Shown piece after piece: positions 1-41,407 of a stretch of DNA of 42,200 nucleotides (its first letter is position 1; every line of letters starts with the position of its first letter). The notes beneath the pieces were generated by a model. That model was not told the origin of the DNA, did not search any database, and was given only the letters and a program-made list of their open reading frames with translations. The stretch lies in IMG/VR virus record IMGVR_UViG_2522572164_000007; one strand, written 5' to 3'. The stretch is from a virus. Lineage: Duplodnaviria; Heunggongvirae; Uroviricota; Caudoviricetes. The position numbers were made by a program, and so were the translations under genes.

Positions 1-386
1 ATAGCTCAGTGAACCGCCGCAGTTCGGGCAGCACGGCGCCGCAGGCAACAGTCGCTTTTCGTCACGGGGTAGTGATTCAGGGAACGGCTTACGGGTGCGG
101 GTCTGACGCAACGGACGCTGTACTGCCGGGTCATACACCCTACCAGTCAGCGTATCGCTCTCTTTCTGAAGCCGGTTCAGATCGGCTTCCATTTGTGCGA
201 TACGGCGGGAGACTTTTTCGGAACGACTGCCGAAGTTCATCCGGCGGAGTTTATCCAGCTGCGCCTGCAGATGGTCTATTTCGCGCTCCCGGTTGCTCAG
301 CTTTTCCTGCAGGGCGTGGATCAGCGCTTCCTGTTCGGCCAGGCGCTGTTTCAGCAGGAAGATGTCGTCAGAAGAGATGTCGTTCA
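1..386 (-). CDS. tnpC: IS66-family transposase TnpC, N-terminal part (gene runs off the window start)
   Basis: Reverse complement of 1..386 begins ATG at 386 and translates MNDISSDDIFLLKQRLAEQEALIHALQ...CCPNCGG, which I recognise as the IS66 TnpC N-terminus with its zinc-finger motif; no stop before position 1. Confidence 0.8.
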
Positions 387-436
387 TAAGCCCGTATTTT
401 ACCGGGCTTATTCTGTGACAACCAGGATAAAGAGAT

Positions 437-784
437 TTACAGCATGGTCAGGGAGGTCAGCAGCCGCTTGGGCTGTCGCCAGTCGATACCTTCCAGCAGC
501 ATCGCCAGCTGCGCCTGCGTAAGGAACACTTTGCCATCACGGGCTGACGGCCAGGCGAAGCGCCCACGCTCCAGCCGTTTGGTCAGGAGGCACAGTCCGT
601 CACCGGTGGACCACAGCAGTTTAACCTGACTGCCGCTGCGGCCCCGGAAAATGAAAACATGGCCGGACATGGGATCGTCTTTCAGCGCCGTCTGTACTTT
701 CGCAGCCAGGCCGTTGAAGCCATTTCTCATATCGGTGATACCGGCAACCAGCCAAATTTTGGTCCCGGAAGGTAACGGGATCAT
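437..784 (-). CDS. tnpB: IS66-family accessory protein TnpB (Orf2)
   Basis: 115-aa ORF MIPLPSGTKIWLVAGITDMRNGFNGLAAKV...; recalled IS66 Orf2 signature; 4-nt overlap with tnpA as is typical for IS66. Confidence 0.85.
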   Translation of the reverse strand: MIPLPSGTKIWLVAGITDMRNGFNGLAAKVQTALKDDPMSGHVFIFRGRSGSQVKLLWSTGDGLCLLTKRLERGRFAWPSARDGKVFLTQAQLAMLLEGIDWRQPKRLLTSLTML

Positions 785-1182
785 CGCTTCAGTTCCTGTA
801 TCAGCAGAGTCAGGAGCTTTTCGCTGACATTGCCATTGAAGCGGAGCGTCCCGTGCCGGAACGTTACCTCACAGCTGATACTGAGGGTTTCCGGGTCCTC
901 TGCGAGCGATTCTGGCTGTTCGGCAGCTGCATCGAGAGTCACAGGAAGTAGCTGGGGGCTCTCTGAAGAAGGTAATAGCAGCTTTCCCTCACGCAATTGT
1001 TGTCGCCATTTGAACAACAGATTGGCGTTAATGCCATTTTCAAGAGCAAGTTTTGAGATGGATATCCCGGGTTCACAGGAGGCAGCAACGAGCTGCTGTT
1101 TAAATTCGGGAGGATAATTAGGGCAGCCTTTTCGCCTGCCGGGATTCACATTTTTCTGCATATCTGACACTTTGGTTCCCAC
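781..1182 (-). CDS. tnpA: IS66-family TnpA (Orf1), helix-turn-helix protein
   Basis: 133-aa ORF at the expected position and size upstream of tnpB. Confidence 0.75.
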   Translation of the reverse strand: MGTKVSDMQKNVNPGRRKGCPNYPPEFKQQLVAASCEPGISISKLALENGINANLLFKWRQQLREGKLLLPSSESPQLLPVTLDAAAEQPESLAEDPETLSISCEVTFRHGTLRFNGNVSEKLLTLLIQELKR

Positions 1183-1515
1183 TACTTATTTGGTGGACAC
1201 CACTTTGTCTAATTCGTCAGATTCTGACCAGACGGTTCAGGCTGTACGCTTACCACTATTTTATCCCTGTTGAATTTGGTTAAGCCGGTGCAGACGAGCC
1301 GGGAAACGCACATCTGAACCGGCACAATAAAATACAATACAACCCCCTGTTACTGGAGATACGAATGGAATGACGAGGCAGCCTGTCAGTCACAGGGGGC
1401 TGTTGGCATAAAATCAACGGAAAGGCCACCAACACCGGAATTAAGCTCCACAGTCCCCGCACTGGCAATCCATTCCCGGGAAAGGCATTACCGCAAACTG
1501 CTCCGGAGGCAACCA

Positions 1516-1950
1516 TTACAGCCTCAGTAACGGATTATCAGCCCTGGCATCTTCCGACGGCACCTCCTGCCGCCCCCACGCCCTGCTGTATACCCCGGTA
1601 CCGCAGCGTGGGCAGCACTTTTCCCCCTCATAATCTTCGTCACACATCACACAAAACCACTTTCTCACCTTCACCGTATAATCCGGAACCGTCATGCCCT
1701 GCAGATGCAAACGACGGGCCTCTTTCTCTGCCGGGTCAAGCCAGGTACATCGCAGCAGGATTTTTTCAGCGACAGTCATCTGGTCATGTTCAAACCACGG
1801 TGGTTGTCCGTCATTGCCCCGCTGAAGTGTTAACGGGCATCCACAGGACACACAGCACAAAACGTCCTGTCGGTTGTGCTTCGCAGCTTCTTTCGCCGTA
1901 ACAAAATGGCCTTTGCTGTCATTCGCCATATAACAGTTCAGAATTCGCAT
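1516..1950 (-). CDS. Cys-rich hypothetical protein (putative zinc-ribbon), paralogue of the upstream gene
   Basis: ORF 1516..2037 trimmed to the ATG at 1950, which is preceded by AGGAGG. Shares CxxC...PWFEH...C..C...Y.GE..C..C motifs with 1938..2345. Confidence 0.5.
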   Translation of the reverse strand: MRILNCYMANDSKGHFVTAKEAAKHNRQDVLCCVSCGCPLTLQRGNDGQPPWFEHDQMTVAEKILLRCTWLDPAEKEARRLHLQGMTVPDYTVKVRKWFCVMCDEDYEGEKCCPRCGTGVYSRAWGRQEVPSEDARADNPLLRL

Positions 1951-2345
1951 ATTTCCTCCTGAGTTGTCCGGGGAATACTGAATCCTCCGGTCTGGCAGTG
2001 TGTGCAGTACTGCTCCCCATAATAATCGTGGTGACATTGTCTGCAGTGCCAGCTGGCTTTACGCACCACGGGTAAGGCATCCGGTACGAATTGCTGCAGA
2101 CGTTTAATCAACTGTATTTCTCTGCGCTCCGGCCTGACATAAGGGCACTGTTGACCGTGCTCTGTCAGCCTGTCGTCAGTGTGTTCAAACCAGGGAAGTT
2201 CAGTGTCGTATTGCGGATGGTATCTGAGTGCACTGCCACACAAGTGGCAGGTGTAGTTAGCATAAGGTGCGGCCTGTGCAGTACGGGCGCCCGTCAGACG
2301 TCCGTTGCCATCAAGAGCGATAAAGGATTTTGCGTACATAGTCAT
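1938..2345 (-). CDS. Cys-rich hypothetical protein (putative zinc-ribbon)
   Basis: 135-aa ORF with CHLCG...PWFEH...CRQCHHDYYGEQYCTHC; tandem with its paralogue, 13-nt overlap. Confidence 0.5.
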   Translation of the reverse strand: MTMYAKSFIALDGNGRLTGARTAQAAPYANYTCHLCGSALRYHPQYDTELPWFEHTDDRLTEHGQQCPYVRPERREIQLIKRLQQFVPDALPVVRKASWHCRQCHHDYYGEQYCTHCQTGGFSIPRTTQEEICEF

Positions 2346-2598
2346 ATACCTCAGCCGCCAGACGACACGCAGGCAACAGCCGTCCCGGTACGGGCAGCGT
2401 GGTCAGGGTGTGAATGGCGGTTCAGTTAAAATCTGGACTGGAGTTTGGGTAAAGCAGGCTGGTTGCTGTTACAGCACTGTGGTTGTCACACAATGGAACA
2501 CTGACGTAAAAAACAGTCAGTGGGCGAGTGGATACATCGTTGCCGCCAGACAACAACCCATACTTTTGGTTTGCCGGATATTGGCGCGCCAGTCGTGC

Positions 2599-3168
2599 TC
2601 AACTCCGGCTACAGCCAAAATTGCGCTCACCGGTGCAGTGAGCTTTGGTATGCTCCTTCGCCAGATAGTCAGCACGTTCCAGCACCTGCTGAAAGCCGGT
2701 GTCATCATTACGCGCCAGCCACACCGCCGGCCAGGCCGGAAAATGCACCAGCGTGGCATGGCACCCGACATCCACTCCCAGGGCACTGCACCACGCCTGT
2801 TTAATCATCCCGGCCAGAGACTCCGGAGCGCGGTAATCACCGGCACGACACCAGGTATCCCGGTTGACCAGCAGCATCAGGTGATAGTGTTTTTTACCTT
2901 TGCACTCCCCAAACTCCCGGGCCCAGACGTAATGCAGGGTTGTGGGATGCACGCGTTTACCTTCCCGATGCTTACGTTTCTGGTAAGCGTCGATTCGGGC
3001 TTTCAGGGCATTGATGAAGCGGGATATCACAGCTGCGTCCGTTGCTGCCGGTACATCCGGGAGACGCAGGTCAACCCGCAATGCCGTCAGGCGGGGATGA
3101 ACATTCAGTGCGTGCCGCACCGTCTCACGAATACGTTGCTGCCAGAAGGGGTTGTATTTGTAGGTCAT
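2599..3168 (-). CDS. YagK/YfjJ-like (inovirus Gp2 family) protein
   Basis: ORF 2599..3240 trimmed to the ATG at 3168 with a GGAGA RBS; family assignment is from memory of E. coli cryptic-prophage YfjJ/YagK proteins. Confidence 0.45.
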   Translation of the reverse strand: MTYKYNPFWQQRIRETVRHALNVHPRLTALRVDLRLPDVPAATDAAVISRFINALKARIDAYQKRKHREGKRVHPTTLHYVWAREFGECKGKKHYHLMLLVNRDTWCRAGDYRAPESLAGMIKQAWCSALGVDVGCHATLVHFPAWPAVWLARNDDTGFQQVLERADYLAKEHTKAHCTGERNFGCSRS

Positions 3169-3333
3169 GGTTAAATCTCCGTATGGTTCATACGGAATAG
3201 CCACGTATAGCGCGGCGATTTTTTTGATACCGATTTGCATTTCATTTGATACCGCTGAAAAACGCCGATACGCAACTTATTTGATACTAAATCGGCGCTT
3301 TTCTTTTGAGTTTTAGAATGAGTTTTTAAGCGC

Positions 3334-4071
3334 TCATTCACTCTCTTTCAAACCAGTTTTAACTGTTTGTGGTTTTGGGTAAGGGTGGACTTTGAATAGC
3401 TTTGTGTTGAGGCGTTTTCTGGCCCTCTTGTTCAGAAACCGGATGTAACGAAACTGTCGGAACTTATGCACACTGGCTCTGTCGATATTAGCCCTCAGAT
3501 GTTCACCTCGTTGTCCGCCTCGTTTAATGGCACTCCTGCAAATCTCGTGATACCACTCGCCATCAAGTTCATAGAATGTTGATTCATGGCTGCCTACATA
3601 ATCAAAATTGCTGGCCTGATACACGACACCAAGACAGCCACAACGCTCATCTGCAAACGACTGAACCCACTGTACCTGCGGATAAAGCTGCCTGATTAGC
3701 TTGAGCGCGTAACTGATTGCCCTTGATTCGGAGTTTCTCGGCATACAGTCATGCATCCATAGCCGGTTAAGCTCCATATATTCTCGGTTCTGCGTACCCG
3801 TTACGACGCGTGCACCACTGTTTGGGTTAAGGGCGTAACCCCATTGCATTACGCCAACAAGTTCCCGTTCTGAAAATATACCCAGATGAAGGTAGGAATT
3901 ATTTACGAAACGGTGGCTGTAATGTTTATTGACGATAACCAGTCTGGCCAGCCAGCAACTTATTGTCTCAACCCGCAACTCACGGGAGCCATAACCAACG
4001 ATATTGTCGTTATAGCGAATAAGTTCAGGCGTGCTGATGATACGGGATGTGACTTGCTTTCTGTTCCCCAC
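3334..4071 (-). CDS. mom: Mom-like DNA modification protein
   Basis: 245-aa ORF immediately downstream of, and overlapping, a Com-like zinc-finger gene at the far end of a Mu-like genome; size fits Mu Mom (about 230 aa). Start codon uncertain. Confidence 0.6.
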
Positions 4072-4225
4072 GACAGGATTTCCTTGTGTATGTGGGGTGC
4101 TCTGTGGCGCTCGGAGATGTGATTTGATTGAGGGTTTTACAGCGCGGACATTTTACTTCCAGATAACTGAAACTGGCCCGTGCCAGTAGCTTATTGCAGT
4201 GTCGGCACCGTATGTTTCGATACAT
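4025..4225 (-). CDS. com: Com-like zinc-finger translational activator of mom
   Basis: ORF 4025..4270 trimmed to the ATG at 4225 (GGAGG upstream). [30 protein letters not shown] resembles the Mu Com motif IRCKNCNKLL...CPRCK. Confidence 0.7.
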
Positions 4226-4261
4226 GGCCGCATAACCTCCTGCTTTGTTGTTGATGCCTTT

Positions 4262-4450
4262 CTCATGCAATCGATCGACAAAAACGATCGATTCGATTTG
4301 TTTAATTGATACAACAAATAGATTTAAAAGTCATCAACAATGATTCAGGGCGGTGATTATTTACTTAAAGAAACGAAGAGTTAGGTGGTGAAAACGATCA
4401 TAAAATGATCATTTTATTGACTTTTTATACAGTGAAGGTAGGATCGCGCG
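4262..4450 (-). promoter_or_regulatory. com-mom upstream regulatory region with clustered GATC (Dam) sites
   Basis: GATC at 4273, 4286, 4396, 4407 and 4442 (five in under 190 bp), directly upstream of com. Mu Pmom is known to be controlled by Dam methylation of upstream GATC sites that affects OxyR binding. Confidence 0.45.
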
Positions 4451-4497
4451 TATATGTAGTATGTTTCAAATCAACAGGATACTACATAAAAGTGAAA

Positions 4498-4523
4498 CCC
4501 AGCATAGCTGGAACTATGCTGGG
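4498..4523 (-). terminator. Candidate rho-independent terminator on the minus strand, upstream of the com-mom promoter
   Basis: Perfect 10-bp stem CCCAGCATAG / CTATGCTGGG with a 6-nt loop; on the minus strand it is followed by UUUCACUUUUAU. Confidence 0.4.
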
Positions 4524-4631
4524 TCAATCTGTAAAAACTTGCATCAATGCTTTACTTCGAGCTCGTGGCGTATCCTATGATATTCCCCGGTCTCCTGTAA
4601 AGCAGAGATGCATAAAAAGGAGATCTTTATC

Positions 4632-4802
4632 ATGGATAAAGAGCCTGTTTGCCCTGCCTGTAAGACTCCCTTACAGCTCATCTATCGCCGTTCTCGATCT
4701 CAAAATGGCAAGACATACAAACCAAAAAATGCTTCCTGTTTCAGGATGCTGATATGTCCTGCCTGTTCTCCCCGGAGGGAAAATACACAAAACGTGCATT
4801 AA
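4632..4802 (+). CDS. Small zinc-ribbon protein (CPxC...CPxC)
   Basis: ORF 4608..4802 trimmed to the ATG at 4632 with an AAGGAG RBS; MDKEPVCPACKTPLQLIYRRS...ICPACS; convergent with the 81-aa minus-strand gene. Confidence 0.45.
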   Translation: MDKEPVCPACKTPLQLIYRRSRSQNGKTYKPKNASCFRMLICPACSPRRENTQNVH

Positions 4803-4811
4803 CAAATTCAC

Positions 4812-4831
4812 CCGGCAGGGAAACCTGCCGG
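4812..4831. terminator. Bidirectional hairpin terminator between convergent genes
   Basis: CCGGCAGG-GAAA-CCTGCCGG (8-bp GC-rich stem, tetraloop) between the stop at 4802 (+) and the stop at 4841 (-); T-rich runs on both sides. Confidence 0.5.
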
Positions 4832-4840
4832 TCGGTATTG

Positions 4841-5086
4841 TTACATCATAGTACCGTCAGTTCCGGGCTGAACCGGCTCTGGTTGCTCTACGGGTTGAGG
4901 CTCATTTTCCGTGCTGTTTTCAGCCGGAGAACGACCAACCATTCGGGCCAGCACTTCATCAACATATGCGTCGATTTGTGCCTCAAAATCCTTGCGAACC
5001 TGCGCCTTCAGCACGCGGTTCACTTCTTCAGAATAAAGTGCCTGTTTGACAAGCTCTTCAGTAACCGTGCCTTTAATCTCTGGCAT
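4841..5086 (-). CDS. Hypothetical small acidic protein (81 aa)
   Basis: ATG at 5086 preceded by GGAGA; acidic, Pro/Glu-rich C-terminus; no family recognised. Confidence 0.5.
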   Translation of the reverse strand: MPEIKGTVTEELVKQALYSEEVNRVLKAQVRKDFEAQIDAYVDEVLARMVGRSPAENSTENEPQPVEQPEPVQPGTDGTMM

Positions 5087-5121
5087 GAATATTCTCCTTT
5101 CCTTTTCTGGTTCACAAAAAA

Positions 5122-5301
5122 TTAAATCTGACCGGAGTCTTTCGGCTGCGGCATTACAGCACCGCTTTTTATCTTTTCCTCGGCAGCTGCATCAATTTTA
5201 TTTCGAAAATAATTGCGAATAATTTTATAACCACCGCTGACAAGCAACAGACAACAAACCACCGTGCAGAAATACAGCAGGCAGACGTTTATATATGTCA
5301 T
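5122..5301 (-). CDS. Hypothetical small membrane protein (59 aa; below the ORF-track size cutoff)
   Basis: My own translation of the reverse complement from ATG 5301 to TAA 5122: MTYINVCLLYFCTVVCCLLLVSGGYKIIRNYFRNK...; one hydrophobic helix; GAGG upstream; sits between the esterase and the 81-aa gene. Confidence 0.3.
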   Translation of the reverse strand: MTYINVCLLYFCTVVCCLLLVSGGYKIIRNYFRNKIDAAAEEKIKSGAVMPQPKDSGQI

Positions 5302-5358
5302 ATAAGCCTCACTCTTATTAACTGATGTTACAGCCGGATAAATTCCCGGCCGTCACGA

Positions 5359-7416
5359 TTATGCCGCAGGGGTATTAACCTCAAGGACAACGCTCTCAAA
5401 AGACACGCCATAAGTTGCCCCTTTGGTGACATCTGTCAGTGTCAGCGTATCTTTGGCAGGGGAAAGTGCATCTTTCACCATCTGGAATGCCTGGCCCGGA
5501 GTGCCATCCAGCACAGGCGTTACCTGGGCACTTCCCGCCGTAAACTTCAGGACAAGTGTATGCCACTGGTTATTGTAGGCTCCAAATGATCCCAGTTTCG
5601 TATTCCCCCCTGTTTTATGGTGCATCAGATTTAACTGGCCGCCTGTTGTCTGGAGATAATACGCCATCAGGAACGGTGTGCCTGTACCACTCATGGTTAC
5701 ACCTTCCGGGACCGTATCGGTGTGGAGGTAAATACCCAGAGCAAACTGGCCTTCTTTTACTTCACCTGACAGACGGAATTTACAGGTCAACTGACCACCA
5801 TGCTTCAGAAGTTCACCGGCTGCATCAGTTCCATGGGTAAGCGTCCAGGTTTTTCCGCTTTGTTTGGATACGGTCAACGCTTTACCTTCGTCCGTCAGCT
5901 GGATTGTACCATCTGTAATTTTCCAGCCCTGAGCCGGGGCTTCTCCTGCTGATGCTTTAAGTGAAAGCAGCGTACGGAGTGACGGGGATGTCGGATGGGG
6001 GGACTCACTGCCTCCTGGCTGACTACCTGTCGGCGCTTCCGGTTTCCCACCCGGCGCGGGCTGAGGCAGGGCTTCACCATCAGGGGCCACACCGGCAATA
6101 AATGCAGAGGTCAGACCTGCATATTTAAGAATTGCTGATGCAAAACGATCTGAGACCAGAAAACGGCGCGCCCAGGAGCTAAAATGGGTTGCCCTGGATG
6201 CTGTTGTCCAGTTGCCATCTCCCCGTGATTCCGCACCATAATACCCGGCAGAAGCGATATCCGGGTCGTGCTCCGGCAGGTTGGTCGCGGTTTTATTACC
6301 GAACTCATCGTGCATCAGTGGAACAAAGTGAATGTTCTCGGAAGCCCGGTTTTTATATCCGCTATAAATGGTTTCATATGCCGCCGGGTTCTTCTCTTTC
6401 CAGTCATAGGTTGTGTCACCACATAACCACGGCACACTGTCTGATGAACCACCAATACACTGACCGGAGAAAGCACCAAGATCCGCACGGAATTTTTTCA
6501 CCATCGCAGTAAACTGGGCACCATGCTGGGCCGGGGTCGCTTTAAGGTCTCCTTCCCCCTGAATCCATACGACAGATAACAGCACATTCTTTGGATTCGC
6601 CTCAAGTGCCGCTTTAGTTCGACTGACAAGATCCTGATACAGTGGGGTATCCACTCCCCAGCGTAGTGACGCCTCGGCTGCACCACTTGCCGGATCGAAT
6701 GAGCCAACTGCGCCGGTTGTAAAAGCAGAGCCGCCACGGGCACAGGGAACCAGTAAAATCCCGGCATCAGCAGGAATCACCGGTAATACTTTTTTCGCAA
6801 TATGAAGTCCCTGCCCCACACAACCATACTGCCCTTTTTTCAGGTCTGCTTTTGGATGGTTCAGCAGACTCATATTCTGAACATCATGAAGGCAGTGATC
6901 TGCTGGAATGATTTCATTGTATTTGCAGGGAATACCTCCGGGGGTTTGTGTATTCCTGCGTGCCAGCTGCATAATACGTGGATCAGGACGATCATAAGAA
7001 TCCGGAAGGGGCAACCCTTCACCATAAGATGAAGCATTGGACTGGCCGGCTATAACAATCACGTAATACCAGGAAGGGGAGCTGGAAGCCGTTTCATTTC
7101 CTGCCGGACGGGTATGTGTTTCTGCATTATCCCAGTCTGACGGTTCAGCAGTACCGGCAACATCAGCACTTAACGGAATGACAGCACCAATACCCGCTCC
7201 GGTAATTTCCACGTTCGGATCACCGGATACTGGCCTTACCCACAGGCAATCCTGTGTATTAAAACTGATGAGACAGTCAGCAAATGTCATTCCTCCTTTC
7301 GTTTCAGCAGGAGGAAAGGGAGCCTCAAGAAATGCCGCTGTACCACCGGAAACTTTAACGGTAAAGTTTCCGGGCATTGATGATAGTTGAACCCATTTGG
7401 ACGTCATAATATTCAT
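5359..7416 (-). CDS. Sialate O-acetylesterase, NanS-p-like (SGNH hydrolase) with extra N- and C-terminal domains
   Basis: 685-aa ORF with YVIVIAGQSNASSYGEG (GQSN block of SGNH esterases); overall architecture resembles the prophage NanS-p esterases of enterohaemorrhagic E. coli. Confidence 0.7.
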   Translation of the reverse strand: MNIMTSKWVQLSSMPGNFTVKVSGGTAAFLEAPFPPAETKGGMTFADCLISFNTQDCLWVRPVSGDPNVEITGAGIGAVIPLSADVAGTAEPSDWDNAETHTRPAGNETASSSPSWYYVIVIAGQSNASSYGEGLPLPDSYDRPDPRIMQLARRNTQTPGGIPCKYNEIIPADHCLHDVQNMSLLNHPKADLKKGQYGCVGQGLHIAKKVLPVIPADAGILLVPCARGGSAFTTGAVGSFDPASGAAEASLRWGVDTPLYQDLVSRTKAALEANPKNVLLSVVWIQGEGDLKATPAQHGAQFTAMVKKFRADLGAFSGQCIGGSSDSVPWLCGDTTYDWKEKNPAAYETIYSGYKNRASENIHFVPLMHDEFGNKTATNLPEHDPDIASAGYYGAESRGDGNWTTASRATHFSSWARRFLVSDRFASAILKYAGLTSAFIAGVAPDGEALPQPAPGGKPEAPTGSQPGGSESPHPTSPSLRTLLSLKASAGEAPAQGWKITDGTIQLTDEGKALTVSKQSGKTWTLTHGTDAAGELLKHGGQLTCKFRLSGEVKEGQFALGIYLHTDTVPEGVTMSGTGTPFLMAYYLQTTGGQLNLMHHKTGGNTKLGSFGAYNNQWHTLVLKFTAGSAQVTPVLDGTPGQAFQMVKDALSPAKDTLTLTDVTKGATYGVSFESVVLEVNTPAA

Positions 7417-7506: not shown

Positions 7507-8067
7507 TTATTTTTCCGAAACGCTCGCAGGATAATAACGATAAAGGGTTGAAAGGCCGATATCAAAAATAAGTGCCACCTGTCTTCGACTGACACCCCCG
7601 GCCAGTAAACGCCCGACCTGCTCGTATTGTTCCTGCGTGAGACGACGGGGTCTGCCGCCGGTTCGTCCCCTTTCACGGGCAGCTGCAAGACCAGCCCGTG
7701 TCCGTTCGACAATTAATTCACGCTCCATTTCTGCCAGCGCACCCATTATGTGAAAAAAGAAGCGCCCCATGGGGGTTGACGTATCAATGTTGTCAGTAAG
7801 ACTACGAAAATTTATCCCCTGTTGCTGTAATTCATCTGTCAGCGCAACAAGGTGGCGCATACTGCGCCCCAGCCTGTCCAGTTTCCAGACCATCAGTGTG
7901 TCACCGGGTTTTAGTTTCTTCAGTGCCCGCTTCAGTCCCGGCCGCTGTGTCGTTTTACCACTCATTTTATCTTCAAAAATCTGCTCACATCCTGCACATT
8001 CCAGCGCATTTCTTTGTAAACCTGTGTTCTGGTCATTTGTTGATACGCGTATATAGCCAATCAGCAT
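7507..8067 (-). CDS. gin: Serine recombinase, DNA invertase Gin/Hin/Pin/Cin family
   Basis: 186 aa; MLIGYIRVSTNDQNTGLQRNAL... is the resolvase/invertase catalytic N-terminus, with a C-terminal HTH (GRPRRL...STLYRY). Confidence 0.9.
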   Translation of the reverse strand: MLIGYIRVSTNDQNTGLQRNALECAGCEQIFEDKMSGKTTQRPGLKRALKKLKPGDTLMVWKLDRLGRSMRHLVALTDELQQQGINFRSLTDNIDTSTPMGRFFFHIMGALAEMERELIVERTRAGLAAARERGRTGGRPRRLTQEQYEQVGRLLAGGVSRRQVALIFDIGLSTLYRYYPASVSEK

Positions 8068-23430: not shown

Positions 23431-23606
23431 TCCGGCAGCATAAGCCGGGAATTTTCAGGGCGGGTTTTGCGGGATTTCAGGAAGTGCTTCCAGGGGAAAA
23501 ATACAAAGGCGCTTCACGCAGATTTTAAAGCCCGTTAAATACAGGTTAGAAAATCACGACACGCGCCTGAAGGGGGTAAGGTAATGCATTTGCATACCTT
23601 AAACAA

Positions 23607-30166: not shown

Positions 30167-30538
30167 TTACTTCGTTTTTCCTGCCGGAACAGCAGGCGTT
30201 CCGGCCATATCAGTAAATTCATGTTGTCGCCGCGTCTCCAGACGACGAATACTGGCCTTGTCCACGTTGCAGTTCTTGATCACCGCCAGCAGTTGCAGGT
30301 TGTAAGTGACCGATGCCCCAAACGTGAACGGCTCCGGCGCAGGAGGGACTAGGCAGTCAGCCAGCCATTCAGCGGGGATCGGCACCGGCTTCACAGGCAC
30401 GTATTTCACAGACGGCCCGGCGCACCCGATCAGCCACATCATCAGGAACAGGGGCAGAGGCCGCAGGCACTGCTGCCAGCGACCGGCGGACAACGCTCTG
30501 CTGCCCCTCGCTGTGCTGAATGTTCTGTTGTTTTTCAT
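30167..30538 (-). CDS. Candidate o-spanin (outer-membrane lipoprotein; start uncertain)
   Basis: Lipobox LIGC after a hydrophobic stretch, then a Pro-rich periplasmic region; overlaps the candidate i-spanin in another frame. Confidence 0.45.
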   Translation of the reverse strand: MKNNRTFSTARGSRALSAGRWQQCLRPLPLFLMMWLIGCAGPSVKYVPVKPVPIPAEWLADCLVPPAPEPFTFGASVTYNLQLLAVIKNCNVDKASIRRLETRRQHEFTDMAGTPAVPAGKTK

Positions 30539-30869
30539 TCGTGGCCGCCTCACTGATTTGTGAAATGAGTTGCAGGGTGTGCTGCTGATTTGCCAGCACC
30601 TGACGCGCCTCATCCCGCTCACGCACAAGCACCTGATTATTGTCTTCAAGGCGCTGCGTCTTCTGGTGCATTCCCCATATCGCGGCAACCAGTACAGCGA
30701 TAATCCCCAGCGCCGCCATGCACGCCCCGGCAATCAGGGCCGGTAAGGCATTATTCACCGCAGCCACAGGACACCCCGTAACAGCAGTACCGCACACAGC
30801 AGCGCTATCATGATCGGTCGCCAGAAGCGGTTCAGACTTTCGGCAAATCGTAGCGACATAACCATTCAT
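30369..30869 (-). CDS. Candidate i-spanin (start uncertain)
   Basis: Hydrophobic LPALIAGACMAALGIIAVLVAAIW followed by a charged, Gln-rich coiled-coil-like region; directly downstream of the endolysin gene. Confidence 0.4.
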   Translation of the reverse strand: MNGYVATICRKSEPLLATDHDSAAVCGTAVTGCPVAAVNNALPALIAGACMAALGIIAVLVAAIWGMHQKTQRLEDNNQVLVRERDEARQVLANQQHTLQLISQISEAATNEKQQNIQHSEGQQSVVRRSLAAVPAASAPVPDDVADRVRRAVCEIRACEAGADPR

Positions 30870-31332
30870 CCGCCGAACGGCGGGCCTCAAGGCCGGGGAG
30901 CTTCACCCCCTTTGAATAAATCCAGCGGATATACTGCTTACAGGACGCGGGCATCTGCCCGGCATTGATCAGGCGCAGAAGCGTGGAGTTGCGAAAGTTC
31001 GTTTCACCGGCCCAGAAGATCCACGAAGCCAGCGCCACCGTCTGACCACGGGTAAGCGGCACCTGAACACGCCGATCAATGGCCGCAAAGGCCCATTTCA
31101 TGTCCTTTTCCAGTAGTTCCAGGCATTCTTCATCCGTCAGGGTCATACCCGGTTTCACATCCGGGCCGGTATGGCCGTAACAGATGGTGGGTGTACCGGT
31201 GGGATCGATATACGTGGAGTTTTCTTTCCCTTCCCAGTAACCGGTGTAATGCGTGGCAATCGTGAACGTCCCGGCACCGGCCAGAACAAGGGCAATCAGC
31301 TTTTTACGCAGTGGTGCGGGGAGTTTTGGCAT
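30832..31332 (-). CDS. lys: SAR endolysin (lysozyme, glycoside hydrolase family 24)
   Basis: 166 aa; N-terminal Gly/Ala-rich weakly hydrophobic segment LIALVLAGAGTFTIA; catalytic triad spacing E-x8-D-x5-T. Confidence 0.8.
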   Translation of the reverse strand: MPKLPAPLRKKLIALVLAGAGTFTIATHYTGYWEGKENSTYIDPTGTPTICYGHTGPDVKPGMTLTDEECLELLEKDMKWAFAAIDRRVQVPLTRGQTVALASWIFWAGETNFRNSTLLRLINAGQMPASCKQYIRWIYSKGVKLPGLEARRSADEWLCRYDLPKV

Positions 31333-31403
31333 TGTTACGCTGTCTCATGATGTTCTCTGAGTCAGCGTAACGGTGAAGGAAAGGCGGCAGGCTTTGCGGA
31401 ATA

Positions 31404-31829
31404 TCAGAAAAGTGGCGGTTGTGTTCTTGCCAGATGCAGACGGCGCTGTTCACGTATGACGGTATAAATCTGGGTTTCTGACATCCGGTAATGGCGGCGA
31501 AGGGATTCAATTTTCTCGCCCCGGTCCCAGCGCGAAAATATCTCATTGTTTCGCAGCTCGGCAAAGAGAGATTCCCCGACCGGCAGGTAATAACCCCGTC
31601 CGCCCATATAGGCTGCCTGAGCCGCAGCCACCTTGCGTGCCAGTTTGCCGGCCAGTACCGGCTCAATCCCCTGACGCTGAAGTTCTGCGCCGGTGACTTC
31701 AACCAGTTCTGACAGGGTCCGCGGCCAGTTCTTTTTGAGAACATCATCAGGGATGTCATCAAGGCGGTCGATAAGGGCGTGCAGTTGCTCACTGTCACCA
31801 CCAAACATGCTCATCTGAGTTTCTGCCAT
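31404..31829 (-). CDS. mor: Mor/C-family transcriptional activator
   Basis: 141-aa ORF immediately downstream of the GemA-like gene and upstream of lys, with a C-terminal HTH-like region. Confidence 0.7.
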   Translation of the reverse strand: MAETQMSMFGGDSEQLHALIDRLDDIPDDVLKKNWPRTLSELVEVTGAELQRQGIEPVLAGKLARKVAAAQAAYMGGRGYYLPVGESLFAELRNNEIFSRWDRGEKIESLRRHYRMSETQIYTVIREQRRLHLARTQPPLF

Positions 31830-31898
31830 ATCAGCCTCCGGTTCTCGCGTTCCCGGTAAGTTTAAAATAAAAATCCCGCGTTGTGGCGGGATTTGGGG

Positions 31899-32408
31899 TT
31901 AACGGGGAAGTGATTTTTCATACTGCCTGCAAACGGCGTCATACCCCATCAGCGTGCGTTCGGGCATTCCCATCGCGGCCAGCATTTTGCGGCGGTGCCA
32001 TCGCTTGAGACGCTCCAGCACATCTGAGGCCAGGGCGGGGTGTTGCTCCAGCCACTGCCAGTTTGCCACACCTTCGCCGCCGTTTTGCGCGGCCGTCTGC
32101 GATTTCACCCAGCGGTTAAGGGCGGTTTCCGCACCATCAGAGATAAAGCCCTGCCGGTGCATCACCTTCCAGATGGCGCGAATTTTAGCGGTCACCGTAC
32201 CCGGTTTTAAGGCCCGGTTAACCGGGTTCTGACGCACTTTAAAACCGCGTTTTTTGAAAACATCCAGCACGCGGGATAACTCATCCGGTGACATATCCCG
32301 GCAGCTGGTTTTGCCGGTGACCGCCAGTAGTACGGATGTGTAGGTTTCATCATCCAGGGCAAGCTCGCGTTTTGCCACATGAATGGCAGATATCAGTTTC
32401 CCTCTCAT
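31899..32408 (-). CDS. gemA: GemA-like protein (Mu gp16-like)
   Basis: 169-aa ORF; N-terminal ...IHVAKRELALDDETY... motif; position upstream of mor. Confidence 0.6.
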   Translation of the reverse strand: MRGKLISAIHVAKRELALDDETYTSVLLAVTGKTSCRDMSPDELSRVLDVFKKRGFKVRQNPVNRALKPGTVTAKIRAIWKVMHRQGFISDGAETALNRWVKSQTAAQNGGEGVANWQWLEQHPALASDVLERLKRWHRRKMLAAMGMPERTLMGYDAVCRQYEKSLPR

Positions 32409-32701
32409 GCTGTATCAACACTCCTGCGGATATGATAGGTATTATTTTCCCGATCGAGCTGAACCCGATACTCCGGAGGAATCACAAAAATATTAAAACC
32501 ATCATCAGTTTTTATTCTTGAGTAGCATTCCCCCTTATGATATCTGGCCAGTGTATTAATCAGAGAAGTCGCAGCCTGCCCAATCAGGTATTTTTTATGA
32601 AAAATACTGATAACTTTCCGGCACAGCCATCGTGTAATGACGAATGCACCGAAAAAGGATGTGATATATAAATACCAGAACAACTGCGAACTACTGTCCA
32701 T
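32405..32701 (-). CDS. Hypothetical membrane protein
   Basis: 98-aa ORF with N-terminal hydrophobic helix LFWYLYITSFFGAFVI. Confidence 0.45.
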   Translation of the reverse strand: MDSSSQLFWYLYITSFFGAFVITRWLCRKVISIFHKKYLIGQAATSLINTLARYHKGECYSRIKTDDGFNIFVIPPEYRVQLDRENNTYHIRRSVDTA

Positions 32702-32888
32702 TATCTTTCTCCTTATTCAGTCTTCTGCGGCATTCGGCACAGTCATCAGGGCTTTCAAATGTATCCGGCTCGCGATTATGAGCCAGATATAACCACCGTC
32801 CACATATACTGATATTTTCGCCTGTTTTAAAAAAATGATGCTTCCTGGCCATTAGTGGCCGCGCCCATCCAGCGGGTAGACTATTCAT
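32691..32888 (-). CDS. Hypothetical small Cys-containing protein
   Basis: 65-aa ORF with four Cys in a zinc-ribbon-like arrangement. Confidence 0.4.
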   Translation of the reverse strand: MNSLPAGWARPLMARKHHFFKTGENISICGRWLYLAHNREPDTFESPDDCAECRRRLNKEKDNGQ

Positions 32889-33216
32889 TTGCTTTATCCT
32901 CCATGCTGGACAGAATCATATGTATTAATGTCGGGCGTGGAGATATACGCATTTCATTAAGCGTCTGAAGGGCAGCAACAGCTGCCTGTTTATCGGTGCC
33001 TTTGGCAATTTCAGCAAGAGAATGCACAATCCATAATGGGCTTAACGCTACGGCTGAATGCAGAATCATGTCATCCATAATAATTTCTGGCATATCCCGT
33101 TTGTCACATTCTTTATCCATAAAAGAAACGATTTTTTCTGCATCTTCCGGTTTCATTCCTCCGGCGATGAGAATTTTACGATATTCATAAGACGATCTTA
33201 ATTCAATACTCATCAT
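32881..33216 (-). CDS. Hypothetical early protein
   Basis: 111-aa ORF, tightly packed in the early operon. Confidence 0.45.
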   Translation of the reverse strand: MMSIELRSSYEYRKILIAGGMKPEDAEKIVSFMDKECDKRDMPEIIMDDMILHSAVALSPLWIVHSLAEIAKGTDKQAAVAALQTLNEMRISPRPTLIHMILSSMEDKANE

Positions 33217-33228
33217 TCACCTGCCTGT

Positions 33229-33597
33229 TTAATCAGTTTCCAGTGCTTTGCTACGGGCAACAGCCTCACACTCAAAAAATACCGACTCCGGCACACGCTC
33301 CTTTAATTCACGAACAAGAAAATCATTAACGAGTTCATGACGTCTTATATTTCTTTCCTTTTCCTCCTGGCGCAATACAGCAAGGCGGTATTCAACAGTC
33401 CGGCGTTGTTTCTGAAAGACAGCCAGTGCTTTTCTGGCAGAGTTACGCCATGTATCATCGCCACAGGGTTCGTATTCAAGCTGAAATTTAATCTCTTCAA
33501 TGGTTTCTTTTATTTTTGCCAGCAAGCTAAGACAGTCGCTGATTGTCTTCAGTTTTTCATTATCAATATAACTTCTCACGCATTCACCTCCCGTCAT
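33229..33597 (-). CDS. Hypothetical early protein
   Basis: ORF 33229..33621 trimmed to the ATG at 33597, which overlaps the upstream stop (ATGA). Confidence 0.45.
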   Translation of the reverse strand: MTGGECVRSYIDNEKLKTISDCLSLLAKIKETIEEIKFQLEYEPCGDDTWRNSARKALAVFQKQRRTVEYRLAVLRQEEKERNIRRHELVNDFLVRELKERVPESVFFECEAVARSKALETD

Positions 33598-33905
33598 TCC
33601 GGTAAAGCTGAAATATGGCACCAGTGCGTCACCTGTCCGTCCTCATCTTCAAGGCAGGCTCCGGTTTCTTCATCAATAAAAAAGCCTTCATACCCCATAT
33701 GGCCGATGCGCAGTTCCTGTTGGTCACCATACTGAACAATCAGCACGACAGCCTCCATATCAGGCGGGAAAGCATCATTCAGTGAATGCCAGGGATAACC
33801 GCGCAAATCCCCGAAATAAACACCGGTCAGCGTTCCGCCACAGACCGGCATTCCGACGGCACACACAAGGGGTTCATCTGATTCAACAAATAATGTCGTT
33901 ATCAT
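33594..33905 (-). CDS. Hypothetical early protein
   Basis: 103-aa ORF; overlap-coupled to its neighbours. Confidence 0.45.
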   Translation of the reverse strand: MITTLFVESDEPLVCAVGMPVCGGTLTGVYFGDLRGYPWHSLNDAFPPDMEAVVLIVQYGDQQELRIGHMGYEGFFIDEETGACLEDEDGQVTHWCHISALPE

Positions 33906-34453
33906 GGCATTAATTCCCGTAATACAACATCTTCGGCAGTCCGACGACGGTGATAAATAAAACTCACCGCGCCCTCGGATAATTCAAATTTCTCGCCGAT
34001 TTCCCTAAAGGTAAGACGCCGTGGTGATTCAGCATCCCGTAATTCACGAATAAGACGAACATCATCGTCAGGTATGCGGGTGAAGGGCAGCAACTCTCCG
34101 TATTTTTTCATGCTTACGCCAATATATCGCGCCCGATTATGGACAGAATCCCGGTCTCGCCCCAGATATTCTCCTATTTGCTTACCGGTCATTGTTCTGG
34201 CATTTTTTCGGATAAATTTATCTTCATCAGGTTTAAATCTGAGGCGTTTGCATTTGAGCAACTCCGGGTAAGTACCGCGTAATAAAACAATCCGGTTATG
34301 TACACCCCAGAAACTTCTTTTTATCCTGACAGCAATATCCTTAACCGGGGTGGATGGATAAAGCGCAATCAGCAGCGCATCTTCTTCAGGTGTCCATGCG
34401 CGAACATGAGCGGGTGCACGGCCTTTTCTCCCCATGGGTTGTAATATCATCAT
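33902..34453 (-). CDS. Putative DNA-binding protein with two Myb/SANT-like repeats
   Basis: 183 aa; WTPEEDALLIALY...GVHNRIVLLR and FKPDEDKFIRKNA...VHNRARYIGV repeats, plus a C-terminal HTH-like segment. Confidence 0.45.
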   Translation of the reverse strand: MMILQPMGRKGRAPAHVRAWTPEEDALLIALYPSTPVKDIAVRIKRSFWGVHNRIVLLRGTYPELLKCKRLRFKPDEDKFIRKNARTMTGKQIGEYLGRDRDSVHNRARYIGVSMKKYGELLPFTRIPDDDVRLIRELRDAESPRRLTFREIGEKFELSEGAVSFIYHRRRTAEDVVLRELMP

Positions 34454-37807: not shown

Positions 37808-38035
37808 TTAGCTGACTTGTTTCGCACCAACAGAACGGCATATTCCGCTGTAAACGTCTGTCGCACCTTCGCGATCAAGTCCGGCAGATATCACCATTCG
37901 TGTGCGGTCATTAAATTCAAAAAGTAAATCGCCACATGCTTTATTTTCGGCCAGTGAAATCACCTTCACGTTATCGAAATTAACCAGGTAAAAGCGTCCG
38001 TAAATATCAGGAATATTAAATACCGCCATAATCAC
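37808..38035 (-). CDS. Hypothetical early protein at the position of Mu kil
   Basis: 75-aa ORF overlapping the end of the MuB-like gene (ATGA); Mu kil occupies this position and size, but identity is not shown by sequence. Confidence 0.4.
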   Translation of the reverse strand: MIMAVFNIPDIYGRFYLVNFDNVKVISLAENKACGDLLFEFNDRTRMVISAGLDREGATDVYSGICRSVGAKQVS

Positions 38036-38964
38036 ACCTGTGAGAGTAATTCAGGGTTGGTATAAACCTCTTTAAAGGCCGCATTAATATGTTTTTCTGT
38101 CAGCGCCGCGCCTTCACCGCTGGCGGTGAGCCACGCCTGGTTAAGCGTATGTGTCAGAACGCGTAATGCTCCCGGCTTTTCAGCGATAGCCTGCATGACG
38201 GCCAGCTCGGCCTCACCACTGATACCCCATGCCCTGGCAATGGCCAGCACATCCGCCTTTTTGGCCTTGCGAAGTTGTTTTGTACGGGCAAGACGGCTGA
38301 ACAGGCGCGATAAATCATCAAAGGCGCGGCGTCCACCTTTAAACAATCCGCGCGGGTTACCAATAAGCACCATCCCGATCCCCGTGGCGTCCTGAATTGC
38401 CCGGAGTTGCTCCAGACCGTCAATACCAAGATGATCCGCCTCATCCACAATCACCAGTCCACGCGTTCCCGTCAGGCGACGGCGGATGGCGCGGGATAAT
38501 GCCCCTTTGTTCGCGCGGGTGTAATCAATCCCCAGCGCATCGGCCAGCTCCAGCAGACACTCCGTGACGCTGGAGTGCGCGGGTGACAGGGTGATCATCC
38601 AGGTGTTTGGTTGCTCCTGGCAGTAATTACGGGCAGTGGCCGTTTTACCCACACCCGGTACGCCCACAATAACGTTAATACAGCCCATCAGGCGAACCGC
38701 CTGAAACAGTGCGCGCAGCTCCTGGACTGTCTGAGTTTCCACAAACTGCGGCGGTTCCGGCAGTGCGCTTTGTTTATTCCAGTTCTCATACCAGGAGCGC
38801 AGGGAAGCAGCCACAGCGGCGTTATCGCCTTTATATTTCCCCTTGCGGAAAGCCGATAATGTGCCGTCGGAAATTCCCGCCTCTCTGGCGATGGCATACT
38901 GCGTCAGCACGCCGCCATCAATAAGTTCATCAATGGTCTTGATTACATCGTTTATATCGGTCAT
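38032..38964 (-). CDS. B: MuB-like AAA+ ATPase (target DNA activator)
   Basis: 310 aa; Walker A GVPGVGKT, Walker B LVIVDEADHL, N-terminal HTH; immediately downstream of the transposase. Confidence 0.85.
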   Translation of the reverse strand: MTDINDVIKTIDELIDGGVLTQYAIAREAGISDGTLSAFRKGKYKGDNAAVAASLRSWYENWNKQSALPEPPQFVETQTVQELRALFQAVRLMGCINVIVGVPGVGKTATARNYCQEQPNTWMITLSPAHSSVTECLLELADALGIDYTRANKGALSRAIRRRLTGTRGLVIVDEADHLGIDGLEQLRAIQDATGIGMVLIGNPRGLFKGGRRAFDDLSRLFSRLARTKQLRKAKKADVLAIARAWGISGEAELAVMQAIAEKPGALRVLTHTLNQAWLTASGEGAALTEKHINAAFKEVYTNPELLSQV

Positions 38965-41140: not shown

Positions 41141-41407
41141 TCAAGCCACTTCTCTGGCGTCCACCTGGTATCTGCTGGGCCAGATTACAGCAGGTTCAAC
41201 CCCTATTTTTTCGGCGATGGCGGCTTCGTATTTACGGCACTGGCGGTAAAACACATTGCGCATTGATCCGCTTTTTAATCCTAACTCCCTTTCCAGTTCA
41301 GGGAGGTCTGTGCCTTTGTTTTCAAGGGCTGCATATACCGCTTTAGCAGACCAGTCACACCCCTCTCGAACAAACAAATTATTCGATGCTTGTCTGGATA
41401 CCCTCAT
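41141..41407 (-). CDS. ner: Ner-like DNA-binding regulator
   Basis: 88 aa; C-terminal ...EPAVIWPSRYQ... matches the Mu Ner motif (...KPEVIWPSRYQ). Confidence 0.75.
   Translation of the reverse strand: MRVSRQASNNLFVREGCDWSAKAVYAALENKGTDLPELERELGLKSGSMRNVFYRQCRKYEAAIAEKIGVEPAVIWPSRYQVDAREVA

Follow-up and report, generated by a model that had tools for sequence, protein, structure and literature searches.

The com-mom operon

[quoted passage not shown] The operon comprises the modification gene mom, the overlapping gene com and an upstream control region with GATC sites, as follows (window coordinates; aa, amino acids):

3334 to 4071, minus strand: mom, Mom-family adenine methylcarbamoylase, 245 aa, GTG start (Pfam, PHROG and PDB matches)
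4025 to 4225, minus strand: com, Com zinc-finger translational activator, 66 aa (PF10122, likeness to Mu Com)
4066 to 4097, minus strand: mom translation-initiation hairpin CCCCAC-N20-GUGGGG (folding and com-locus comparison)
4236 to 4241, minus strand: com Shine-Dalgarno sequence AGGAGG (read from the sequence, kept in the alignment of com loci)
4269 to 4293, minus strand: proximal GATC pair (4289-4286 and 4276-4273, 13 bp apart), predicted Dam-sensitive OxyR half-site

The predicted Mom protein matches Pfam family PF25680 over the entire profile (positions 1-202 of 202; 8.4e-77, 257.8 bits against a cut-off of 27.1), PHROG 1384 ('Mom-like DNA modification protein', 2.6e-83) and the solved 'Methylcarbamoylase mom' structure PDB 8BV8 (3e-123). 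Alignment to the proteins of phage Mu yielded identities of 78% for Mom (182 of 231 residues, with all 231 Mu residues covered) and 47% for Com. Six residues of Mu Mom whose substitution by alanine impairs acetyl-CoA binding, iron binding or activity (H48, Y49, R101, S114, D139 and Y149; PMC7261163) are all kept in the window protein, as H50, Y51, R103, S116, D141 and Y151. An earlier interpretation of the window, made without database searches and referred to below as the sequence-only reading, had pointed out that the mom open reading frame (ORF) is somewhat longer than that of Mu and that the modification chemistry could differ. The length difference is real (245 versus 231 aa) and consists of two residues near the N-terminus and a C-terminal tail of 12 residues. 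A different chemistry is unsupported, given the 78% identity, the retention of the six functional residues and the fact that the extra length is a short tail. Formation of N6-methylcarbamoyl-adenine, as in Mu, is a reasonable expectation.

The same reading had described a Com-like zinc finger overlapping a Mom-sized ORF, and this arrangement is confirmed, both proteins having Pfam matches. Com is recognized by Zn_ribbon_Com (PF10122, 2e-12) and receives the PHROG name 'gpCom control of modification'. Its cysteines 7, 10, 26 and 29 are in register with cysteines 6, 9, 26 and 29 of Mu Com, in a four-cysteine zinc finger of the form CxxC-N15/16-CPRC, and the mom start lies in the 3' end of com, with 47 nt shared. 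The module was already known, since RefSeq names both genes ('Com family DNA-binding transcriptional regulator' and 'Mom family adenine methylcarbamoylation protein') and SP18-type phages have been described to carry Mom and its regulators (PMC3299994).

The probable translational gate and the gene behind com

In the hairpin that precedes mom, the GUG start codon is within the 3' arm and an AAGGA Shine-Dalgarno sequence is within the loop. The motif GAGCAC, presumed to be the Com target, is located directly 5' of the hairpin and is conserved. Comparisons were made among 80 com loci collected from viral contigs, in which related loci are labelled with L-numbers. Neither the hairpin arms nor the upstream GAGCAyCCCAC vary among the enterobacterial com loci examined, whichever gene comes next. 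As the arms never vary, the hairpin offers no covariation evidence; that they stay the same in lineages with a different gene downstream nevertheless speaks for maintenance of the Com gate.

The gene following com and its target hairpin encodes Mom in approximately 35 of the 80 loci, a C5 methyltransferase in 9 and an N6/N4 methyltransferase in 35, with no such gene in the remaining locus. Some prophages carry a 350-aa Dcm-like C5 DNA methyltransferase (TIGR00675, 7e-40) in place of Mom, namely L001 (4534-5785; LC727881, a Mu-like insert in an Stx2c phage), L154-L157, L159, L160 and L162, the closest siblings having a 96-97% identical com. P2-like phages of the Chuche type present a beta-class N6/N4 methyltransferase behind com (L007 2479-3421, which is phage Chuche, and L165-L197). 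The exchange joint falls directly after GUGGGGAAC. Judging from these loci, com and its target hairpin appear to behave as an exchangeable gate for DNA-modification genes, and the C5 and N6/N4 cargo extends the com-methyltransferase pairs known from B3, FluMu (hin1523) and Pnm1 (PMC3299994).

GATC sites and the probable Dam/OxyR element

Two further features of the region upstream of com are relevant to its transcriptional control:

4274 to 4310, minus strand: GATC-containing stretch that best fits the 37-bp OxyR consensus (13 of 20 specified positions)
4396 to 4445: distal GATC sites 4396, 4407 and 4442, lineage-specific (comparison of com loci)

Five GATC sites (4273, 4286, 4396, 4407 and 4442) are found within 173 bp upstream of com, against 0.57 expected at the window-wide rate; the sequence-only reading had reported this density, with about one site expected by chance. 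The excess has a Poisson probability of 3e-4 for a pre-specified place and a probability of 0.012 in first-order Markov simulations of 4226-4530. As a scan statistic it is weak, since random placement of 138 sites produces at least five in 174 bp somewhere in the window in 24% of cases. As a separate observation, the window contains no GATC between 783 and 4272, i.e. over 3.5 kb that include the entire com-mom coding region (~3 expected at the window rate); the Mu coding regions have one GATC in com and two in mom.

The two sites proximal to com align with GATC sites 2 and 3 of Mu, with equal spacing and equal flanks, and are contained in a perfect 9-bp inverted repeat, AATCGATCG-N7-CGATCGATT. 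A pair with 13-bp spacing at -64/-51 from the com start occurs in most of the 80 com loci, being shared by the window type, three enterobacterial lineages of greater divergence and the Chuche-type P2-like phages, and it is kept although the sequence between and around the GATCs has changed. Searching the viral contigs for CGATCG-N8-GATCGATT recovered 137 instances, 42 of them with com downstream. The proximal core is identical at 22 of 28 positions to the proven OxyR/Dam core of agn43 (Mu, 20 of 28). In a crude count of matches to the OxyR consensus over both strands of the 42-kb window, 8 positions reached at least 13 of 20, all of them within 4341-4274, the same count giving 14 for agn43 and 13 for Mu on their true sites. 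In addition, the pair (4289-4273) fits one OxyR half-site (ATCGtTtttgtCGAT); in the gtr operon of P22 each 13-bp GATC pair is inside one half-site, ATAGxTxxxAxCTAT (PMC2909390). On the grounds of the Mu and agn43 homology, the conservation at -64/-51 and the highest consensus scores of the window, the proximal pair is most likely a Dam-sensitive OxyR site.

Other interpretations of these sites can be weighed against the same data. All five GATCs could form one extended Dam/OxyR control region for mom, an enlarged version of the three-site region of Mu, and they do constitute the densest cluster of the window at such a scale. However, the distal three are 107-170 bp upstream of the proximal pair, outside the stretch of OxyR-consensus matches, and in or beside an oppositely directed promoter: GATC 4442 overlaps the -10 of a plus-strand promoter at 4417-4444, and sites 4396 and 4407 are part of a repeat read in the sequence as TGATCAT-AAA-ATGATCA. 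They are also absent or different in close relatives with com-mom, the corresponding region having a single site in nine sibling loci, none in the L159 type and sites at other positions in other lineages. A single five-site region, as the sequence-only reading had it, is thus highly improbable: the proximal pair alone is conserved, and the distal three vary and adjoin a promoter pointing away from com. As far as the compared loci indicate, the distal three are not part of the conserved com control, which comprises the proximal pair only. Alternatively, the pair could be read by a factor other than OxyR, such as the phage's own C-like activator or SeqA, or methylation could act directly on RNA polymerase. 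The perfect inverted repeat would suit a dimeric regulator, and a separate activator site was not found upstream of com, but the core is identical at 22 of 28 positions to a proven OxyR site and homologous to the OxyR region of Mu, and the same GATC-pair element precedes com in P2-like phages, whose late activator differs. Recognition by another factor is considered improbable, if slightly less so than the five-site region.

Two other sequences are of note in relation to this element. In three Chuche-like loci (L194 type, L194 ~1930-2000), the region homologous to the GATC triad is devoid of any GATC (CAATAG...AAATCAAT), while a TATCAT -10 and com are kept; this type should be a natural variant blind to Dam. 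In the window, the only other place with at least 18 of 28 identities to the agn43 OxyR core is 41476-41449 on the minus strand, a match without GATC in the intergenic region between a repressor-side ORF and the ner-like gene, which may be due to chance.

Candidate com promoters and late activator

The following features were considered for transcription of com:

4251 to 4267, minus strand: candidate weak -10 elements of a proximal com promoter, CATGAG (4267-4262) and CATCAA (4256-4251)
4306 to 4334, minus strand: candidate alternative distal com promoter ATGACT-17-TATCAA (hexamer conservation)
31404 to 31829, minus strand: Mor/C-family activator, candidate late activator (PF08765 at 2.8e-32)

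At the position of CATGAG, 6-8 bp downstream of the GATC pair, relatives have TATACT, TATCAT or TATAGT as -10, and at that of CATCAA close siblings have TATCAT or TATCAA. As for the distal candidate, the L143 type keeps both hexamers (ATGACA-17-TATCAA) around a different spacer; use of this promoter would place the GATC pair at approximately +11 to +27, in an agn43-like manner. A Mu-like -10, TAAATC (4326-4321, aligned with TAAGAT of Mu), was ruled out, as the L143-type siblings read TTCGTG there.

The Mor/C-family ORF shares 39% identity with Mu C and 27% with Mor. Of the ten ORFs scanned (30167-34453 and the ner-like ORF), no other belongs to this family; its place is directly between gemA and lys. 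The lys and I promoters of the prophage have in common TCC(C)GCAAA(A/G)CC, 28 nt upstream of TA(C/T)GCT, on the minus strand at window positions 31333-31403 (lysozyme) and 23431-23490 (protease/scaffold, I-like gene), where the second motif extends to TTA(C/T)GCTG. This box is a candidate late-promoter signature of the single Mor/C-family activator. Searches with k-mers from the late intergenic regions and with the pattern TCCNGCAAARCC returned exact or one-mismatch matches solely at the I and lys promoters, and the com upstream region shares with the I promoter only the 10-mer CCGCCCTGAA, in a different register. Absence of the box at com is weak evidence against activator dependence, and the Mor/C-family protein of the prophage may be needed as a late activator of com.

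The hairpin and promoter cassette upstream of com

Further upstream, between the GATC sites and the neighbouring genes, a group of additional elements was identified:

4496 to 4525, minus strand: conserved covarying hairpin (fold energy and covariance), previously taken for an insulating terminator
4572 to 4601, minus strand: promoter-like TTTACA-18-TAGGAT, ~47 nt upstream of the hairpin (hexamer conservation)
4417 to 4444, plus strand: promoter-like TTGACT-16-TAGGAT, directed away from com towards a small ORF
4608 to 4802, plus strand: small zinc-ribbon ORF (CPAC...CPAC), divergent from com, likely start ATG 4632, 56 aa
4812 to 4831, minus strand: hairpin right after the DUF826 stop codon, between convergent genes (-17.1 kcal/mol, z = -4.0)

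The strong minus-strand hairpin that the sequence-only reading had placed upstream of com is real. It extends from 4525 to 4496; a stem of 13 bp closes a 4-nt loop, and the folding energy is -21.5 kcal/mol (z = -7.3), a stability reached by 0 of 200 shuffled sequences. The tail reads UCACUUUUAU, or UUUCACUUUU when counted from the 10-bp G+C core, and the latter passes a terminator scan. A good U-run directly at the stem is restricted to the window lineage, most relatives having (U)CNCCCUUUAUG, with UUU 3-6 nt past the stem. Across lineages the stem sequence changes and the arms still pair (CCCAGCAUAG/CUAUGCUGGG, CCCGGCAG/CUGCCGGG, GGUCCAGAUAG/CUAUCUGGACC and CCCCCCAUAG/CUAUGCGGGGG), at -12 to -25 kcal/mol. 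In a covariance-model alignment of the 24 copies present in the loci searched, 7 of 10 pairs are altered on both sides. In this alignment, which is fitted to the structure and hence leans somewhat towards it, 81.8% of cells are paired, compared to 27-44% when the partner is slid, and 0 of 500 shuffles reach the observed covariation. Its G-U counts partly reflect bulge misalignment and were not used for strand inference. A plain MAFFT alignment of the hairpin units, in which the 3' arms were misaligned, yielded next to no signal with RNAalifold and was replaced by the covariance-model alignment.

The hairpin occurs as part of a larger unit. On the com strand, the TTTACA-18-TAGGAT promoter is followed by a conserved AGUAAAGCAUUGAUGC block and then by the hairpin; both hexamers are invariant in 10 diverged relatives, with the 18-nt spacer varying. 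The plus-strand promoter has counterparts in L157 (TTGACT-16-TAAGAT) and L162 (TTGACG-16-TATAAT). The likely ATG of the small ORF, at 4632, follows AAGGAG, and its zinc-ribbon product shares 46-53% of its amino acids with the proteins encoded at this place in L157, L158 and L163. In the L130 and L160/L162 types the slot is occupied by unrelated ORFs (68 aa or 101 aa) and the cassette stays. Relatives with the cassette, at -640 to -100 from com, are L130 and L157-L163, and the hairpin unit is tandemly duplicated in L130, L159, L160 and L163. Mu and the L143-type siblings have com-mom without it.

Comparison of the whole window with Rfam at the gathering threshold, and of 3900-5000 at E <= 1, gave nothing relevant, so the cassette does not belong to any described RNA family. 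When phage and plasmid collections were searched with it by BLAST, the same Mu-like elements alone were recovered. PADLOC, Pfam, PHROG and NCBIfam scans assigned no significant family to the small plus-strand ORFs, and a literature search for a small RNA in Sp18 returned only a different small RNA, with Sp18 excision mentioned. The 'frameshifted hypothetical protein' pseudogene that PGAP annotates on the plus strand of sibling genomes (4340-4802) is apparently an artefact, because the small ORF is merged in it with non-coding leader/promoter sequence.

The sequence-only reading regarded the hairpin and its U-tract as an insulator, and a dedicated intrinsic terminator selected to shield a toxic com-mom from upstream transcription would indeed explain a stable G+C-rich stem followed by UUUCACUUUU, located on the same strand as com and upstream of its control region; phage Chuche, too, has a terminator ~60 bp upstream of its GATC triad. 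Against this, most relatives have (U)CNCCCUUUAUG after the hairpin and no U-run at the stem base, the hairpin is always paired with a conserved same-strand promoter ~47 nt upstream, the unit is found as tandem duplicates in some relatives, and Mu and L143-type com-mom loci lack it. Furthermore, the moron operon has its own hairpin at 4831-4812, which would be the first barrier to read-through from that operon. The strong stem and, in the window lineage, the U-tract are real; insulation of mom is at most a side effect, given the cassette membership of the hairpin, the lineage-limited U-tract and the moron operon's own hairpin, and a terminator dedicated to it is unlikely. Slightly more doubtful still is that the hairpin and its flanks serve solely as the folded 5' leader of a plus-strand transcript for the small ORF, with no separate minus-strand RNA. 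The plus-strand promoter is conserved and the hairpin does lie between it and the ORF start, but an invariant TTTACA/TAGGAT around a varying 18-nt spacer is the pattern expected of a promoter on the minus strand, and the two modes are not mutually exclusive. The hairpin probably ends an RNA of ~80 nt (~4565 to 4487) antisense to the leader of the small divergent ORF, with the shielding of com from read-through as a plausible by-product. More tentatively, the ~190-bp cassette at 4417-4601 might be an undescribed cis-antisense unit whose ~80-nt RNA controls the small gene plugged into it, next to com and its hairpin as an exchangeable gate; this fuller proposal is possible but falls short of an even chance. 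If true, the cassette RNA would act on the small gene of the opposite strand like a type I toxin-antitoxin pair, and leaky read-through of the ~80-nt RNA might also feed com-mom.

Prophage context and prevalence

The remaining landmarks of the prophage are:

7507 to 8067: Gin-type invertase
30832 to 31332: lysozyme
31899 to 32408: GemA
38032 to 38964: transposase B
39040 to 41130: transposase A
41141 to 41407: Ner-like helix-turn-helix protein

Transposases A and B, GemA, the Mor/C-family protein, lysozyme and Gin are arranged in Mu order. Among 5,426 complete E. coli genomes, 207 contain the Mu-like prophage of the window at a coverage of at least 80%, and 233 contain the 1.6 kb around com-mom with at least 90% identity. 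The same 1.6 kb is found at 99.7-99.8% identity beside many different flanking host genes, and the matches end at window 3206-3201, which places the end of the prophage there.

The flank of this end (window 1-3205) is itself mobile, with IS66-family orfA/orfB-like ORFs at 437-1182, and a gene of the YagK/YfjJ family has its likely start at 3168, ~40 bp off the prophage end (3206). Between gin and com, the minus strand of window 4841-7416 encodes a three-gene block with nothing at that place in Mu: a SASA/DUF6645 esterase of 685 aa and two proteins, one with DUF1378 and one with DUF826. The esterase, of the NanS-p type, is ~61% identical to the yjhS/NanS-p 9-O-acetyl-sialate deacetylase that 350 Stx-converting and lambdoid phage records carry.

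Proposed mechanism

The best explanation as a whole, with a probability of roughly 0.8, is a Mu-like com-mom operon that would function in five steps and that has an independent cassette as neighbour. Transcription would start from a weak promoter overlapping or adjoining the Dam-sensitive OxyR site at 4289-4273, where, by homology to Mu and agn43, OxyR would repress at the un- or hemimethylated site and full Dam methylation would relieve the repression. The single Mor/C-family protein is perhaps needed as late activator, as the likeness to Mu faintly suggests. Com, translated from its strong Shine-Dalgarno sequence, would bind the mRNA just 5' of CCCCAC-N20-GUGGGG and open the hairpin that sequesters the mom GUG, allowing Mom to be made; the anatomy of this step is observed, and the activity is expected from Mu. 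Mom, a GNAT-fold enzyme, would then bind acetyl-CoA and iron and convert adenine of the phage DNA to N6-methylcarbamoyl-adenine, as its 78% identity and intact residues suggest, and, from its likeness to Mu Mom, the modified DNA would be protected from restriction. Finally, the distal GATCs and the strong hairpin would belong to the neighbouring cassette, with two promoters facing each other across the hairpin, one driving the small variable ORF away from com and the other most likely making the ~80-nt RNA, which would stop at the hairpin and run antisense to the ORF leader.

Several observations weigh against parts of this model. The candidate -10 elements are poor, whether CATGAG, CATCAA or the upstream TATCAA, which is without T at -7. 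[quoted passage not shown] Upstream of com, neither TTAT-N6-ATAA nor a ATAACCCC-type C site is present and the lys/I box is not matched, and activator dependence is for this last reason an assumption carried over from Mu. The third GATC of Mu (site 1) is gone, its position reading TATCAAT or being lost. The OxyR assignment derives from a crude consensus count and homology, and the minus strand is presumed to be the acting strand of the hairpin.

By every testable sequence criterion, the module belongs to the com-mom family of Mu. Its translational and enzymatic steps very probably work as in Mu; in the transcriptional step, the sequences point to a Dam/OxyR element in common with Mu and to a promoter layout that is not. 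Accounted for in these terms, the Mu-type, Dam/OxyR-controlled mom operon of the sequence-only reading is upheld in its module type, its translational hairpin and its upstream Dam/OxyR-type site, and not in the Mu promoter layout or in dependence on a C activator.

The finding is in itself ordinary and matters little, the family having been sequenced hundreds of times, with specific RefSeq names and with the Mom of SP18-type phages already in the literature. What is added is that the conserved control would come down to one agn43-like GATC pair beside the promoter, with the distal three GATCs incidental, and that, as the Mu promoter architecture has changed, regulation in these prophages of Shiga-toxin-producing E. 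coli is not to be assumed Mu-like. Also added are an RNA-like element, conserved and covarying, whose small-gene slot can change its occupant, and an exchangeable slot for modification enzymes behind com, both of which bear on restriction evasion by such prophages.

Comparison with known systems

In Mu, com-mom likewise lies at the transposable prophage's right end, the genes overlap by 50 nt (47 nt in the window) and the mom GUG is in the 3' arm of a CCCAC...GUGGG hairpin preceded by GAGCAUCCCAC, the window equivalent being CCCCAC-N20-GUGGGG after GAGCAC. GATC sites 2 and 3 of Mu, with their 13-bp spacing and flanks, are matched in the window. Site 1 is missing, and the Mu layout, in which three GATCs (18 + 13 bp) precede a C-binding site and promoter, is replaced by two sites only, 27 nt closer to com than in Mu; neither a C-binding site nor a T6/TAAGAT promoter is recognizable. 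In Mu the control region adjoins gin, whereas in the window gin and com are set apart by 3.2 kb of moron genes together with the promoter/hairpin cassette. Mu has two genes, mor and C, separated by four small genes, in contrast to the one Mor/C-family gene of the window prophage, and its Mom lacks the 12-residue C-terminal tail.

Judged by alignment, the closest sequence relative of the window's Dam/OxyR element is the switch of agn43 (flu). The two cores (ATCGATCGTTTATATCGATCGATAAGCT and ATCGATCGTTTTTGTCGATCGATTGCAT) are identical at 22 of 28 positions with the same 13-bp GATC spacing, and score 14 (agn43) and 13-14 (window) in the crude OxyR-consensus count. The GATCs of agn43 are spaced by 19 and 13 bp, the third of them, located 19 bp upstream, having no equivalent in the window, and the agn43 sites are just downstream of the transcription start, whereas the starts in the window are predicted candidates.

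In P22 gtr, 13-bp GATC pairs are each inside one OxyR half-site, as is the window pair (PMC2909390), and transcription from the proximal promoter (start near 4243) would put the latter at approximately -46/-33, the placement of GATC3/GATC4 of gtr. The gtr region differs in having two pairs and three half-sites, with alternative activating and repressing positions of OxyR, compared to the one pair of the window. Lastly, B3, FluMu (hin1523) and Pnm1 also employ com as a portable translational gate before a DNA-modification gene; the cargo in the window is the classical Mom.

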